Below are positions 11,695 to 60,176 of a DNA stretch of 64,000 nt, one piece after another (the stretch's first letter is position 1; each line of letters begins with the position of its first letter). The notes beneath the pieces were generated by a model. It made no database searches. It saw only the letters and a list, made by a program, of their open reading frames with translations, and was not told where the DNA came from. Source of the DNA: Pseudomonadota bacterium (GTDB lineage: Archaea > Thermoplasmatota > SW-10-69-26 > JACQPN01 > JAJPHT01); the NCBI GenBank assembly GCA_021325135.1, contig JAJPHT010000006.1:1034-65033 (forward strand). The letters run 5' to 3'. Made by a program: the position numbers and the translations under genes.

Positions 11695-12666
11695 TCAGCC
11701 CGAGAAGTGCCGCACGACGCGCCCCTCGCGCTGCTTGCGGACGACGCCCGATCTCACCAGGCGCACCAGGTGCCAGTGGAGCGCCTGGGGCGTGAGGCCG
11801 GTGGCCTGGGCGAGGTCCTTCTGCGTGAGGCCCGGGGTCGCCTTCACGCGCTGGGCCACCTGGGCCGTGACGGGGTTGCAGAGGATGGCGACGGTCTCCT
11901 TGGTGGCGGCAAGCTGCGCGCCGTTCTCGAAGTAGCGGCGGTGGCGCCCCTCGCGCAGCGAGGTGACCATGCGCGTCTGCTCCAGCACGTCCAGGTGGTA
12001 GATGGTGGTGCCCCAGGCGACGCCCGCGGCGTGGGCGAGGTCGCTGGCGGAGGCGCCGGGGTTCGCGCGGATGGCCTGGAAGATGCGCTCGCGCACCTCG
12101 TTCTGGAACACCTCGGCGCGGCTGACCTTGGCGTACAGGGTCACCACCGGGAGCCAGAGGACCTTCTTGATCCCGGCTCCGAAGTAGGCGAGGAGCCCGG
12201 CGCCGGCGAAGGCGGCCGCGGCCAGCGCGGCGGTGGCGCCTTGGAGGAGCACGGGGGACTCCGCGACGGAGGAGGTGGCGACCGCGCCCGCGGGGGCCGC
12301 CTCCCGGGAGGCCTCGCGGCCGGTGCCCAGCGCGAGGCTCGCGTCGAGGCCCACGGGGAGGCCCGTGGAGGGGAGGTTGACGCGCCGGTCGGCCGAGGCG
12401 CCGGGGAGCGCCACGCCGTGGGCCTGCGCGGGGTCGAGGTGCAGCGTGGGCGCCTCGTGGAGGGTCGCGACCTTGAGGTCCAGGGTGGCGTCCGCGACGA
12501 TGCCGCCGGGGGAGACGGCCTGCTTCGCGTCCTGCTGCGCCGCGGGGACGGGGGTCGATTCCGGCGCGCGGAGGCCCAGCGAGGCGCCGACGCCCACCAT
12601 GGCCAGGACGAACCCTGTCGCCAGCAGCGTCAGGGCAAGGACGTTCTTCCGGGGGACCAGGCTCAT
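11695..12666 (-). CDS. membrane-tethered tandem winged-helix regulator (two TM segments)
   Basis: The N-terminal TM (VLALTLLATGFVLAMVGVGA) is followed by an extracytoplasmic segment of about 130 aa and a second TM. Two wHTH units follow (NPGASASDLAHAAGVAWGTTIYHLDVLEQTRMV and TPGLTQKDLAQATGLTPQALHWHLVRLVRSGVV). Confidence 0.7.
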   Translation of the reverse strand: MSLVPRKNVLALTLLATGFVLAMVGVGASLGLRAPESTPVPAAQQDAKQAVSPGGIVADATLDLKVATLHEAPTLHLDPAQAHGVALPGASADRRVNLPSTGLPVGLDASLALGTGREASREAAPAGAVATSSVAESPVLLQGATAALAAAAFAGAGLLAYFGAGIKKVLWLPVVTLYAKVSRAEVFQNEVRERIFQAIRANPGASASDLAHAAGVAWGTTIYHLDVLEQTRMVTSLREGRHRRYFENGAQLAATKETVAILCNPVTAQVAQRVKATPGLTQKDLAQATGLTPQALHWHLVRLVRSGVVRKQREGRVVRHFSG

Positions 12667-38734: not shown

Positions 38735-39608
38735 CGGTGGGCCACACCTCGATGCTCTGGGTCGGGCCCTTCTTCACCATCACGTGCACCACGTCGCCGG
38801 GCGCCACGCCGGGGATCTGGATGGGGATCTGGGCGCCTCCCTCGGCGGTCACGAACATGGTGCCGGACGCGTACGTCTCGACCTTCGCCTCGTGGATCAG
38901 GCACATCTTCACGAAGTCCTGCACGAACGGGTGGCTGTGCCGCATCACGCGCTCGGGCTCGTCGAAGGTCACGACGCGCCCCTCGTTAAGCACCAGCACG
39001 CGCCGGCTGAAGAGGAACGCCTCCTCCTGGTCGTGGGTGATGAGGAGCGTCGTGACGCCCAGGCGCTTGATGATGGCGCGCACCTCCTGGACGACCTGCG
39101 AGCGCGTCGTGGCGTCGAGCGCGGTGAAGGCCTCGTCCAGGAGCAGCAGGCGCGGGTTCACGGCCAGCGCGCGGGCCAGCGCCACGCGCTGCTTCTCGCC
39201 GCCGCTGAGGGTCCCCGGGTACGCGTCGGCGCGGTGGCGCAGCTGCACGAGGTCGAGCATCTCGGAGACCTTCTCGTCCGCCTCGCGCCGCGGCGCGCGC
39301 CGCATGCGCAGGCCATAGGCGACGTTGTCGCGCACGCTCATGTGCGGAAAGAGCGCGTAGCCCTGGTACACGATGCCCACGCCGCGCTTCTCCTGCGGGA
39401 CGCGCGTGACGTCGAGGTCGTCCACGACGACGCTGCCCCCTTCGGGCCGAAGCTCGCCCAGGATGCACCGGAAGAGCGTCGTCTTGCCGCACCCGCTGGG
39501 GCCGATCACCGCGACGATCTCGCCGCTGGGGACGTCGATGGAGACGTCCTCGAGGACGACCTTCCCATCGAAGGCCTTCCGGATGCCGGCGAGCCGAAGC
39601 TTGGCCAC
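38724..39608 (-). CDS. ABC transporter ATP-binding protein with C-terminal TOBE-like domain
   Basis: Walker A GPSGCGKTT, signature LSGGEKQRVALARAL, Walker B LLLLDEAF and H-loop ITHD. GTG start at 39608. Confidence 0.9.
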   Translation of the reverse strand: MAKLRLAGIRKAFDGKVVLEDVSIDVPSGEIVAVIGPSGCGKTTLFRCILGELRPEGGSVVVDDLDVTRVPQEKRGVGIVYQGYALFPHMSVRDNVAYGLRMRRAPRREADEKVSEMLDLVQLRHRADAYPGTLSGGEKQRVALARALAVNPRLLLLDEAFTALDATTRSQVVQEVRAIIKRLGVTTLLITHDQEEAFLFSRRVLVLNEGRVVTFDEPERVMRHSHPFVQDFVKMCLIHEAKVETYASGTMFVTAEGGAQIPIQIPGVAPGDVVHVMVKKGPTQSIEVWPTDAD

Positions 39609-56203: not shown

Positions 56204-57550
56204 TTGTCGCGCCACTCCATCCTCGCGGTCGCTCTCGTGCTCGTGGGCGCCGCCGTCGCGGGCTGCGTCTCGCAGACCCCCGCGGACGTCAAGCAGGCCT
56301 CGGCCTCGCTCCCGGACCTCACGAAGCCCGTCTTCGCCGCGACGAAGCTCCTGGACACCGTGCGCGCGGGCGGAGAGCCCGTCATCGCCATCACGCCCAA
56401 GGGGACCATCCTCGTGGGCGCGCACCCGGGCTGGACGCACACGCGCTACCCGCCCTCGCCCAACCTCGTCGAGCCCGCCACGGGGCAGAGCTACATGTGG
56501 CGCAGCACCGACAACGGCACCACCTTCGCCCCCGTGGGCCTCCCCGGCGCCAACGGCGTGGGCCCCCGCGGCATCGGCCAGGGCGTCAGCGACCCCGACT
56601 TCGCCATCGACAAGAACGGGCGCATCTACTTCACCGACCTCGAAGGGCTCGCCAGCGCGTCCGTCTCGTGGAGCGACGACGACGGCCAGACGTGGCTCAT
56701 GGGCAACGACGTGGCGGCGTCCTTCGGCGGCGGGCCCATCGACCGCAACTGGCTCGCGGCGCAGGGCACGGACGTCTACTTCGAGGGCAACTACTTCCAG
56801 AACGGCGAGCAGATCCTCAAGTCCACCGACGGCGGCATCACCTGGAGCGTCGTGGGCCAGCCCCCCTGCGAGCAGCAGTTCGTCGTGCCCCAGCCCAAGA
56901 CGATCCTCGTGGGCTGCCCCACCGGCATGGCGGTGAGCACGGACGACGGCGCGCACTTCGAGCCGCGCCTGGTCCCCGGCGCCAAGGCCGAGAGCCGCGG
57001 CATGTCGCTCCCCGCCCTGGACGCCGCGGGCAACGTCTACGTCACGTGGGCCGCGGCGGACGGCATCTACGTCGCGGGCACCCGCGACCTGGGCAAGACC
57101 TGGAGCCACCCCATCAACCTCGCCAAGGCCGGCGGCCTCACCGGCACCAACGTGTGGCCCTGGGTCGTGGCGGGCGACGCGGGCCGCGTCGCGGTGCTCT
57201 GGTACGGCACCAACGCCACGGGCGGCCCTGCCAACGCGACGGGCGACTGGTTCGTCTACGAGGCCACCGTCCTCGATGCCATGAACGACACGGCGCAGGT
57301 GTCGGCCACGCAGGTCACGCCCAAGCCCATCTTCCAGGGGCACATCTGCCAGAACGGCACGACGTGCCAGGCCGACCCCTCCCCCGCGGGCGACCGCCGC
57401 CTGGGCGACTTCTTCGAGGCCGCCGTGGACGCGCAGGGCTACGTGCACGTCGTCTACGCCGTGGCCCTGGGGGACAGCATCAGCCACCCCGGCTACAGCA
57501 AGCAGACGGGCGGCATCCCCCTGAAGGCGCCCTCGTCTGCCAACGGCTGA
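56204..57550 (+). CDS. BNR/sialidase-like beta-propeller lipobox protein
   Basis: TTG start and ILAVALVLVGAAVAGC lipobox. There are five S-x-D-x-G-x-T-W/F repeats: STDNGTTF, SDDDGQTW, STDGGITW, STDDGAHF, RDLGKTW. Confidence 0.8.
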   Translation: MSRHSILAVALVLVGAAVAGCVSQTPADVKQASASLPDLTKPVFAATKLLDTVRAGGEPVIAITPKGTILVGAHPGWTHTRYPPSPNLVEPATGQSYMWRSTDNGTTFAPVGLPGANGVGPRGIGQGVSDPDFAIDKNGRIYFTDLEGLASASVSWSDDDGQTWLMGNDVAASFGGGPIDRNWLAAQGTDVYFEGNYFQNGEQILKSTDGGITWSVVGQPPCEQQFVVPQPKTILVGCPTGMAVSTDDGAHFEPRLVPGAKAESRGMSLPALDAAGNVYVTWAAADGIYVAGTRDLGKTWSHPINLAKAGGLTGTNVWPWVVAGDAGRVAVLWYGTNATGGPANATGDWFVYEATVLDAMNDTAQVSATQVTPKPIFQGHICQNGTTCQADPSPAGDRRLGDFFEAAVDAQGYVHVVYAVALGDSISHPGYSKQTGGIPLKAPSSANG

Positions 57551-57593
57551 CAAACATCCCATCTTGGTGCGGGACGGAGACAGAGGGTTCGTT

Positions 57594-57680
57594 CCCGGCG
57601 GCTCCCGCAAGCCTCCAAGCCTCCCAACAGCCTCCGTTCTCTCACAGCCTCCTGTGGGTCGCCGGGATTCATTCTCCACC
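57594..57680 (+). repeat. CCTCC-rich structured repeat, copy 1
   Basis: cccggcggctcccgcaagcctccaagcctcccaacagcctccgttctctcacagcctcc...cgccggg. The 33-nt core at 57608-57640 is identical to 59008-59040. The flanks cccggcg/cgccggg can pair. Confidence 0.75.
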
Positions 57681-57701
57681 GCCAAGCTCTCCAGCGACCG
57701 C

Positions 57702-57707
57702 TTTAAG
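57702..57707 (+). promoter_or_regulatory. putative TATA-like box for the PAS-V4R gene (leaderless spacing)
   Basis: TTTAAG lies about 28 nt upstream of the ATG at 57732. Confidence 0.3.
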
Positions 57708-57731
57708 GCCCGTCCGGACAAAGCAGGGTGC

Positions 57732-58946
57732 ATGGTGGCGCCGCCGTCCTCGCCTCTCGACGAGCACGACCTCCATCGCATCGTCTTCGCGGCGCAGAGC
57801 GACCTGGGCGAAGGCATCCTCGTCGTCGACCGCACGCGCGTCGTGTACGCCAACGACGCGTACTGCCGCATCGTGGGCCGCACGCGCGAGGAGGTCCAGG
57901 GGTTGGCCAGCCTCCTCGACATCGTCGTCCCCGAGGATCGCCAGGCGATCTACGAGCGCGAGATGCGCCGCGGCCGGGGCGAGGACGTGCCCCTCTTCTA
58001 CGAGACGACCATCGTGCGCCCTGACGGCACGCGCGTCCCCATCGAGATCGGCCTGCGCCCCGCCGCGGGCGACGTGCCGGGGCGCTACGTGAGCGTCGTG
58101 CGCGACGTCACCTCGCGAAGGGCCAGCGAGGCCGCGCTGCGGGAGACCGAGGAGCGCTTCCGCCGCGCCTTCAGCGACGCCGCGACGGGCATGGCCATCT
58201 ACGACACCCAGGGGCGCTTCCAGCGCGTGAACCAGGCGCTCTGCGACCTCCTGGGTTACAACGAGGAGGAGATGCTCAAGCTCACCTACCGCGAGGTCAC
58301 GCACCCGGAGGACCTGGAGGCCCTCGTCGCGCTGGGCCGCCAGTTCATCAGCGCCAGCGCGACGGACTCCGTGCGCTTCGAGCGCCGCTACCGGCGCAAG
58401 GACGGCGCCACCGTGTGGGCGCACGTCAACAGCAGCCCCATCCTGGACGACCAGAAGAGGACCCTCTACTACGTGACGCACATCTTCGACATCTCCGCGC
58501 GCAAGGCCGCGGAGGACCTCACGCGCAAGGACCAGGTGAGCCGCCGCGTCGTGCGCCACATCCTGCGCGACATCTCGGACCGGCCCTCGACGAGCACCGC
58601 GATCCGCCGCGACCTGGGCCGCAGCCTCGCGGGCGAGACGTCCGAGGAGACGATCAAGGGGTGCCTGGACTTCTTCGGCTCCCTGGGGATCGGCGCCCTG
58701 GAGGTGGAGAGCGGCGAAGGGGACCGCTACTCCATCCGGGGGCGGGACCTCCTGGAGATGACGCCCGGGGCCGGGGTCCCCACGTGCCACATCGCCTTGG
58801 GCTTCCTGGAGGGGTGCGTCGCCCGGCTCCACGGCGGGAACGCCCTGGGCGCCGAGTTGTCCTGCCAGAGCACGGGGCAGGAGGCGTGCCGGTTCGTGGT
58901 CCACGCCCGGGCCGCCCCTGGGGAGAAGTTGTCTGGTCGATCCTGA
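57732..58946 (+). CDS. PAS-PAS-V4R sensor protein (no recognisable output domain)
   Basis: Two PAS-like units (ILVVDRTRVVYANDAYCRIVGRTREE and MAIYDTQGRFQRVNQALCDLLGYNEEE...HPEDLE...E.RYRRKDG...W). The C-terminal V4R-like segment reads TCHIALGFLEGCV...LSCQSTGQEACRFVV. Confidence 0.75.
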   Translation: MVAPPSSPLDEHDLHRIVFAAQSDLGEGILVVDRTRVVYANDAYCRIVGRTREEVQGLASLLDIVVPEDRQAIYEREMRRGRGEDVPLFYETTIVRPDGTRVPIEIGLRPAAGDVPGRYVSVVRDVTSRRASEAALRETEERFRRAFSDAATGMAIYDTQGRFQRVNQALCDLLGYNEEEMLKLTYREVTHPEDLEALVALGRQFISASATDSVRFERRYRRKDGATVWAHVNSSPILDDQKRTLYYVTHIFDISARKAAEDLTRKDQVSRRVVRHILRDISDRPSTSTAIRRDLGRSLAGETSEETIKGCLDFFGSLGIGALEVESGEGDRYSIRGRDLLEMTPGAGVPTCHIALGFLEGCVARLHGGNALGAELSCQSTGQEACRFVVHARAAPGEKLSGRS

Positions 58947-58992
58947 CAAGCATCGTACCATGCCCGCCGGCGCCCCCTGGAGGGATGGAGAA

Positions 58993-59082
58993 CCCGGCGG
59001 CTTCCGACAAGCCTCCAAGCCTCCCAACAGCCTCCGTTCTACAGCCTCCCAACAGACGGAGCCGCCGGGTTTGCTCTCCACC
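58993..59082 (+). repeat. CCTCC-rich structured repeat, copy 2
   Basis: aacccggcggcttccgacaagcctccaagcctcccaacagcctccgttctacagcctcccaacagacggagccgccgggtt. The terminal 12-nt arms are perfectly complementary. Confidence 0.75.
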
Positions 59083-59186
59083 AAGGTCTTCCGAACGCCC
59101 GCGGGCTTCCGCGGGACTCCTTCTCCATAGACCTACGGAGAATCCAACGCGATGCTCCATAGGCTCCGGACGACAAAGCTGGGGCG

Positions 59187-59843
59187 ATGATGAACCGAAC
59201 CATGGACCCGACCCTGGAGGTCGCGGTCAAGACGGCCGGACCTGCGGGCCGGCCCCCCCGCCCCAACCTGCGCATCGCGGTGGACTTCGACGGAGTCCTC
59301 TTCGACCACATCCCCTACCTCCTGCGCGGCTTCCGCGACGCGCACGGCATCGACCTGGCCGCGGAGGGGCTGCGCCACTGGGACTTCTTCCAGTACCGCG
59401 CCGTCCGCGAGCGCAACCTGAGCTGGAACGCCGTGAAGACGGTCCTGGAGCGCATCGACCAGGACCCCGTGCTGCACGACTGCGACGCGCGCGACCCCGA
59501 CGCGGCCGACGTGATCGCCTCCTGGCGCGCGCAGGGGCACCAGGTCAGCGTCGTCACGGCGCGCGAGCCCGGAGCCCGCGCCACCACCGAGGCGTTCCTC
59601 GCCCGCAACGGCATCCGCGTGGACGAGGTCGTCATGGGCGCGCGCCTCAAGACGGGCTACGACGTGCTCGTCGACGACGCGCCGCACAACGTCCTCATGG
59701 CGGCGGCCGACGGCGGCCTGGCCCTCCTCATGGACCACCCCTACAACCGCGACGTGCCCAGCAAGAGGAACCCGCTGCGCGTGCGCCGCTGGCGCGAGAT
59801 CGAGCCCATCGTCGCGGGCCTCGCCCTGGAGGCCGCCGCGTGA
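59187..59843 (+). CDS. HAD-superfamily 5'(3')-deoxyribonucleotidase-like phosphatase
   Basis: IAVDFDGVLFDH (DxDxV/T motif I), VVTAR and VLVDDAPHN. Several alternative ATG starts lie at 59190 and 59202. Confidence 0.65.
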   Translation: MMNRTMDPTLEVAVKTAGPAGRPPRPNLRIAVDFDGVLFDHIPYLLRGFRDAHGIDLAAEGLRHWDFFQYRAVRERNLSWNAVKTVLERIDQDPVLHDCDARDPDAADVIASWRAQGHQVSVVTAREPGARATTEAFLARNGIRVDEVVMGARLKTGYDVLVDDAPHNVLMAAADGGLALLMDHPYNRDVPSKRNPLRVRRWREIEPIVAGLALEAAA

Positions 59844-60121
59844 GCGCCTGGTGGGCCTACGCGGGCGCGGCGCTCCTTGTGGCCGCGACCCTCCCCCAGG
59901 CGGCCCGCCTCGTGCGGACGCGCCGCGCCGACGACCTCACGTGGGGGTTCGTGGCCTTGAACGCCGGGGGCATCGCGCTCCTGGGCCTGCGCAGCGCGGA
60001 GATCGGCGAGTGGGGGTTCGTCGCGGTGAACGCCAGCACGGCGGCCTTCTGGCTGCTGGTGGCAGGAATCAAGGCGTGGCCCCACGCCACAGAGAAGAGA
60101 AGTGCGGGTGTCGAGATTTGA
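59840..60121 (+). CDS. PQ-loop/SemiSWEET-like three-TM protein
   Basis: 93 aa with three helices and a TLPQAARLVRTRRADDL PQ-loop motif. The GTGA overlaps the upstream gene. The last 19 nt overlap tRNA-Gly on the other strand. Confidence 0.55.
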   Translation: MSAWWAYAGAALLVAATLPQAARLVRTRRADDLTWGFVALNAGGIALLGLRSAEIGEWGFVAVNASTAAFWLLVAGIKAWPHATEKRSAGVEI

Positions 60122-60176
60122 ACTCGAGCAGCAACGTTGGCAACGTTGTGTACTAGCCAGGCTATACTACACCCGC
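60103..60176 (-). tRNA. tRNA-Gly (anticodon GCC)
   Basis: The reverse complement folds by hand. The acceptor is GCGGGTG/CACCCGC and the D stem GTAT/GTAC. The anticodon stem CAACG/CGTTG carries loop TTGCCAA. The T arm is TCGAG-TTCAAAT-CTCGA and the discriminator is A. No CCA is encoded. Confidence 0.85.

Follow-up and report, generated by a model that had tools for sequence, protein, structure and literature searches.

A 64,000-nucleotide stretch of contig JAJPHT010000006.1 (the window), from a metagenome-assembled genome (MAG) of the Thermoplasmatota, contains two CCTCC-rich structured repeats, one on either side of a PAS-PAS-V4R gene, and raises the question of what these repeats are and why they lie exactly 1400 nt apart. 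The initial annotation left three possibilities: a small structured RNA family, tandem operators co-controlling the sensor and nucleotidase genes, or terminal repeats of a mobilised 1.4-kb cassette. The first of these has been borne out, with at least 42 members distributed throughout one archaeal class, covarying stems and a conserved loop motif. The best explanation is that the two repeats are paralogous, neighbouring genes of an undescribed family of small structured RNAs, ~85-110 nt in length and encoded on the plus (CCUCC) strand; taken as a whole, that is, with expression predicted from sequence signals and with the masking of Shine-Dalgarno (SD) sites in trans included, this explanation stands, in our judgement, about evenly between right and wrong.

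The 33-nt cores at 57608-57640 and 59008-59040, which had been described as identical and 1400 nt apart, are indeed so: the two copies are direct repeats with a start-to-start distance of 1400 nt, and the core has two matches in the window and none in 100 dinucleotide-preserving shuffles. Each copy carries four AGCCTCC motifs, as initially counted, and a motif scan of the 3.77-Mb genome (71.6% GC) found four AGCCTCC within 80 nt at just two loci, the window copies. The likeness had been put at about 90 nt, a generous figure: BLAST aligns ~57 nt at 92% identity, and the further likeness is one of architecture, with matches of the covariance model R2 (see below) at 57578-57684 and 58978-59086.

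The complementary ends reported to close both copies form stems of 12 and 15 bp. Copy 1 (57578-57684, plus strand; R2 match of 70.0 bits, E=1.3e-14, G000:C44:58611-58717) has a stem of 12 pairs, two of them G.U, detected by constrained folding and a hairpin scan; its arms TCCCGGCGGCTC (57593-57604) and GGGTCGCCGGGA (57656-57667) enclose a G-poor loop of 51 nt (57605-57655) that holds the identical core and the four motifs, and a pyrimidine-rich, terminator-like tail, TTCATTCTCCACCGCCA, follows at 57668-57684. Copy 2 (58978-59086, plus strand; 69.5 bits, E=1.7e-14, G000:C44:60011-60119) has the same build: a perfect 12/12 helix, aacccggcggct/agccgccgggtt, is contained in a stem that reaches 15 bp when G.U pairs are counted, GAACCCGGCGGCTTC (58990-59004) pairing with GGAGCCGCCGGGTTT (59058-59072), the loop with its core and four motifs measures 53 nt (59005-59057), and the pyrimidine-rich tail GCTCTCCACCAAGG (59073-59086) begins directly after the stem. 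A U/C-rich tract in this position is found in almost all members of the family.

When one copy was used as BLAST query against its own genome, only the pair was matched, and the family emerged through motif scans and covariance models. A first model was built from eight distant sequences of family f6, with the helix set by hand and the remaining sequences realigned by Infernal (MAFFT failed to bring the divergent stems into register), and it picks up the window copies with 39.7 and 31.8 bits. The second model, R2, was built from 19 members and matches 19 of the 21 genomes sampled from one Thermoplasmatota class, including MAG SW_10_69_26, with 1-8 copies per genome and E-values that are to be taken as rough. 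No R2 match at E<=1e-4 was obtained in 280 other Thermoplasmatota genomes, where stricter filters were used. Moreover, an exact-pattern scan of one genome for each of 185,579 species gave stem-closed true matches only in MAGs named Thermoplasmata or Thermoplasmatales archaeon, SW_10_69_26 among them; the matches in other phyla, none of which is stem-closed, were rejected as chance. A pattern scan of metagenomes added almost nothing to the family (locus L134 only), together with an unrelated inverted-array element, L129. Rfam 15, searched at E<=1 with the window copies and six relatives, returned no family, only tRNA and sub-threshold chance miRNA matches, and a text search of the literature turned up no published description of these CCUCC hairpin RNAs.

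The search for more copies, proposed together with the original observation, gave the pair alone by BLAST and four matches by covariance model in the window genome (G000): the two window copies, C48:6883-6994 and C24:101107-101203. On C48, three CAGCCTCC stand in the loop of the look-alike, whose stem is perfect over 13-14 bp and differs greatly in sequence from those of the window copies. This genome contains at least three more hairpins built in this way, each with a stem of 10-14 bp, a G-poor loop and two (A/G)CCUCC, at C42(-)100817-100882, which also has a CTTCTTCTC tail, C11(-)12172-12232 and C39(+)39300-39368; since the genome-wide model search does not list them, the family must be larger than the model count. 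When relatives were searched by BLAST and by pattern, the loop motif also turned up in genomes from the same genus, order and class.

The case for a structured RNA is carried by the stems. Constrained folds of ~29 members each give a stem of 8-16 bp round the CCUCC region, with at least 13 unrelated stem sequences. In the 42 sense-strand members aligned by the model, 91.5% of stem cells pair, against 50.5% with shuffled partners and 41-51% when one arm is slid by 1-3 columns, and the covariation that had been suggested as a check is seen in this model-made alignment as compensatory changes in 14 of 14 pairs, with 226 double-change cells where 73.7 are expected. RNAalifold predicts the same 14 pairs. 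These comparisons show that the stem is selected for pairing while its sequence drifts. In a duplex test, cognate flanks gave -42.5 and non-cognate flanks -32.2 kcal/mol, a difference blurred by sequence common to relatives. Furthermore, G.U cells outnumber A.C cells in the stems (45 vs 20, and 25 vs 12 in a smaller set), which fits the CCUCC strand as the folded RNA, though only modestly, because the model favours G.U and the members are related to one another.

The loop, in turn, is 31-66 nt long, has 15% G and is predicted to be unpaired in both constrained and free folds. It holds 1-5 motifs (mode 3) with the consensus A(82%) G(89%) CCUCC C(68%) A(72%) A(60%), i.e. AGCCUCC(C)AA, at start-to-start spacings of 8, 9, 11 and 14 nt. 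A reading of the element as a small open reading frame was ruled out by these spacings and by non-triplet indels that break every frame. Directly 3' of the stem stands a pyrimidine tract of the CCTTCCTTCTT type, which is a plain T-run (TTTTTT) in the members with lower GC.

Upstream of the stem, the members of family f6 have a CAAAG-CTTAAG-G box, read as a B recognition element (BRE) plus TATA box, at a distance of 24-30 nt, or of 48-59 nt in a second f6 group, where an additional 5' hairpin fills the gap. The copies of genus g1, including those of the window, share an upstream ACAAnC-ATCnnA box, of which the degenerate form ACAAGC-ATCGTACCATGCC lies at the same distance from the stem as the BRE/TATA of f6. 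Candidate weak promoters would be ACAAAC ATCCCATCTTGG for copy 1 (57550-57567, plus strand, ending 25 nt before the stem) and ACAAGC ATCGTACCATGCC for copy 2 (58946-58964, plus strand, ~26 nt before the stem). The promoter-like box of copy 2 is the same in copy 1 and in both orthologues of the sister species G002, and its TACCATGCC resembles the TTCATGCC boxes of the tRNA promoters in the window genome, which are comparably degenerate. Promoter box and T-tract together orient the unit on the CCUCC strand, and we infer that each copy is its own transcription unit, the distant members having BRE/TATA at a constant spacing and this genus only a degenerate box. As a separate observation, an inverted repeat TTGTC...GACAA surrounds the candidate promoters of several g1 copies, as at 58929-58951 in the window, examples being GTTGTCTGG-N-GACAAC for copy 1 of G002 and TTGTCTGGTCGATCCTGACAAG for window copy 2; it could be a putative regulator binding site.

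The genes next to the members are varied (NosD-like, P-type ATPase, CAAX protease, LVIVD, CBS, FEN1 and fumarase) and often on the opposite strand, which argues against a leader or 3' untranslated region (UTR) belonging to one kind of gene. Certain neighbours recur across genera: G016, G017 and G019 have FEN1 (XPG_N) and fumarase together, and both G015 and G018 have a CBS protein. The copies are thus stable orthologous loci and not mobile repeats. Tandem arrangements are typical of the family: pairs are also found in G017:C3 and G015:C43, and in G006:C637:719-1578 (minus strand) four members stand in a row within ~860 nt, an array like that of CcsR1-4.

As regards function, a trans-acting small RNA (sRNA) that masks SD sites is favoured and plausibly inferred. 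The GC-rich stem of 8-16 bp would hold open a G-poor, largely unpaired loop of 31-66 nt in which AGCCUCC(C)AA is displayed three to five times, and transcription would probably end in the U/C-rich tail after the stem. Acting in trans, the RNA would pair its CCUCC motifs with the GGAGG of mRNA SD sequences and block 30S binding, and several seeds per RNA together with several genes per genome would raise its capacity. In the window genome the frequency of GGAGG is highest at positions -13 to -9 relative to gene starts, and the 16S tail, taken from relatives G007 and G010 because the 3' end of the 16S gene is missing from the window MAG, ends in GGAUCACCUCCUA. The 11-mer complementarity matches include several ribosome binding sites (GGAGGCTGTTGACATG, GGAGGCTTCCCCATG), with an enrichment no greater than composition could explain. 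The only multi-site GGGAGGC target loci in the window genome are the antisense strands of further family members, e.g. C42(-)100817-100882.

Sibling sRNA genes with C-rich seeds are known from bacteria. In RsaE/RoxS, LhrC1-5 and the csRNAs of Firmicutes, two or three C-rich (UCCC/CCUCC-like) loop seeds pair with SD regions; these RNAs are Hfq-dependent or -independent, carry their motifs in separate small loops and are unrelated in sequence to the archaeal family. A closer parallel, the closest found, is offered by the alphaproteobacterial alpha-r14/NfeR1 and CcsR1-4 'cuckoo' sRNAs, which occlude ribosome binding sites and combine an identical, ultraconserved anti-SD-like C-rich motif in the unpaired loops with variable stems, redundant seeds and tandem genes (PMC10746234, PMC8034643). 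The conserved loop motif, divergent stems and tandem siblings are common to both groups, and the parallel is one of design only: the bacterial RNAs carry the motif CCUCCUCCC once per small loop in two or three hairpins, whereas the archaeal ones carry AGCCUCC(C)AA three to five times in one loop of 31-66 nt on a single hairpin. Moreover, CCUCCUCCC is absent from the window copies, and the archaeal family has neither a DUF1127 neighbour nor a match to an Rfam model. Within the archaea, sRNA41 of Methanosarcina mazei has been proposed to mask ribosome binding sites (PMC5867862); it belongs to a different phylum, the review makes no mention of a multi-repeat loop, and the likeness is by description only. 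An accessible loop with several CCUCC is what the bacterial anti-SD sRNAs display, and this, with the precedent of sRNA41, is why an SD-masking sRNA is favoured.

Several results weigh against this explanation. The folding energies of the single copies are ordinary when compared with shuffles (z of +0.54 and -0.83, in a genome of 72% GC), so that the case for structure rests on covariation and not on stability; the alignment behind the pair counts is fitted by the model, and pairing is consequently somewhat inflated, although the raw list of stems, which involves no alignment, makes the same point. The window copies have no good TATA box and could arise by read-through from the co-oriented genes upstream. 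The reach of an anti-SD regulator is narrowed by the many apparently leaderless genes, whose TATA signal lies at -29 relative to the ATG; GGAGG(TG) at normal SD distance is found in a minority of the genes of this genome. No convincing target emerged: GGAGGCU is raised about 2-fold at SD positions (31/513 against a background of 3.2%), an excess that may reflect composition. Finally, A-G before and C-A-A after CCUCC are conserved beyond what the masking of SD sites needs, and may point to a dedicated partner, either protein or RNA. On a related point, ~6% of the SD-positioned GGAGG in G000 are followed by CT, often as GGAGGCTTC(C/A)CCATG (e.g. window ~15404), with 8 nt complementary to AAGCCUCC of the sRNA and 5 nt to the 16S tail; these GGAGGCT start sites may be sRNA targets or a composition effect.

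A role as protein sponge or as decoy of the 16S tail is conceivable, given the extra conservation round CCUCC and target searches that gave no clear result. RNAs such as CsrB/RsmZ and CrcZ, which also have sibling genes, expose many copies of a short motif (GGA and A-rich, respectively) in accessible RNA and have CsrA and Hfq/Crc as partners; the repeated accessible motif and the siblings are alike in the archaeal family, the motifs and partner proteins are not matched here. In a sponge of this kind, single-stranded AGCCUCCCAA units would titrate an RNA-binding protein, possibly one with a KH domain whose usual ligand is the CCUCC 3' tail of 16S rRNA, e.g. aDim2/Pno1, or Nob1. Such a role would account for an open loop in which three to five nearly identical units follow one another closely and at irregular intervals, for their conservation past the core (A-2, G-1, C+1, A+2), for the resemblance of the unit to the 16S tail (CACCUCCUA vs CAGCCUCCCA) and for target searches that gave no clear mRNA. 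However, the analysis yielded neither a candidate protein nor one that co-occurs with the family, the likeness to the tail extends over just 5-7 nt, and base-pairing sRNAs with repeated C-rich seeds show the same pattern (PMC10746234). A sponge is on balance unlikely. Quite unlikely, in turn, is a reading in which the family is a free mimic of the 16S 3' tail, its three to five CCUCC units per RNA soaking up SD sequences or a factor that reads the tail. If it were true, strong expression of such a mimic from several genes would tip translation throughout the cell from SD-led to leaderless mRNAs or back, making the family a global translational switch limited to one archaeal class instead of a regulator with few targets.

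A reading of the element as cis-acting, in which it mainly terminates or stabilises the upstream transcript and the window copies are 3' UTRs, one of the BNR gene and one of the PAS gene, has a slim chance of being correct. Both window copies begin ~28-32 nt past the stop codon of a co-oriented gene, each consists of a hairpin followed by a pyrimidine tract, and their promoter-like boxes are weak. Nevertheless, in many members (e.g. G015a, G015b and G017c) the upstream gene lies on the other strand, the f6 members have their own BRE/TATA, tandem arrays occur without an intervening gene, and a conserved loop motif of 50 nt is superfluous for a terminator.

A DNA-level element devoid of RNA function, be it a REP/MITE-like palindromic repeat or an operator or cruciform bound by a regulator, is very improbable. 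REP and BIME sequences, whose copies number in the tens to hundreds, conserve their stem and vary their loop; like the present family they are intergenic, GC-rich, multi-copy hairpins. In the archaeal family, by contrast, the copies are few (1-8 per genome), the stems vary even within one genome (at least five different ones in G000) and the loop is conserved; members occupy orthologous loci across genera, G.U pairs exceed A.C pairs, and promoter and T-tract keep a fixed orientation. The proposal of tandem operators that co-control the sensor and nucleotidase genes has likewise found no support, for the element adjoins unrelated genes, often on the opposite strand, and its stems covary, which a DNA site read by a protein does not need.

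The remaining proposal, a mobile 1.4-kb cassette with PAS-V4R as cargo and the repeats as its terminal direct repeats, is suggested by a single gene between two direct repeats and by the absence of that gene from the syntenic site of G002, and is almost certainly wrong, because this "empty" site already holds both orthologous copies, ~300 nt apart, elsewhere the element is found both as single copies and in tandem arrays with no gene in between, and a Pfam search of the cassette gave no integrase or transposase. In G002 (C61) the order is BNR gene, copy 1, copy 2 and NT5C gene, each copy being orthologous to one window copy; the closest PAS-V4R homologue of that species, with 43% identity, is on a different contig. 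Since G002 has both copies without the PAS gene, and tandem pairs exist elsewhere, the tandem pair is ancestral, and neither the cassette nor the shared operator holds up. The 1400-nt spacing is thus accounted for by the PAS-PAS-V4R gene, either inserted between ancestral tandem copies here or lost in G002. At the same locus of G002 (L108, ~530-690) an ~85-nt near-perfect palindrome (CCGAGCCCGATTCCGATTCCTCTTCCGAGCCCGGC...) fills the space between the sRNA copies, where the window genome has the PAS gene, and at positions 3-125, where the contig starts, part of the BNR gene is repeated in inverted orientation beside the forward copy (residues 311-351, 88% identity), either an assembly artefact or a local inversion.

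To our knowledge, the regulatory RNAs described from archaea are very few, and a literature search found no description of one for the uncultured high-GC Thermoplasmatota. The comparative support for the RNA family is unusually clean: it is present across the class, its stems covary and its loop motif is invariant. The family is also a ready candidate for a new Rfam entry. Its multivalent, anti-SD-like design, with several motifs in a giant loop, echoes the cuckoo/NfeR1 RNAs by separate evolution, and it would offer a handle on how translation is tuned in archaea that mix leaderless and SD-led mRNAs.

Concerning the neighbouring genes, a gene for a BNR-repeat protein (Pfam) ends at 57550, upstream of copy 1 and co-oriented with it; the PAS-PAS-V4R gene (57732-58946, plus strand; Pfam PAS_9 1.1e-30, V4R 1.3e-09) lies between the copies and outside the RNA family; and an NT5C/HAD nucleotidase gene (Pfam) follows at 59187-59843 on the plus strand. 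The plus-strand starts at 57732 and 59187, to which TATA-like patches had been assigned, are each preceded by such a box 22-23 nt before the ATG, TTTAAGG at 57702-57708 for PAS-V4R and CCATAGG at 59157-59163 for NT5C. The two promoters are alike (57690-57735 and 59150-59192), with the TATA-like box followed by TCCGGAC..AAAGC.GGG..ATG, and both genes look leaderless. A second CTCCATAG box is found near 59125-59132, upstream of the NT5C gene. A short way downstream of the nucleotidase gene, the minus strand encodes a tRNA at 60103-60176 (61.4 bits with the Rfam tRNA model). Finally, the GCCTCCC word is shared by a different element, represented by L036 (G002:C24:1134-1247) and the metagenome locus L129:1837-1986, which consists of long inverted arrays of 10-nt GGGAGGCnnn / nnnGCCTCCC units forming perfect hairpins of ~50 bp (-109 kcal/mol for L129).

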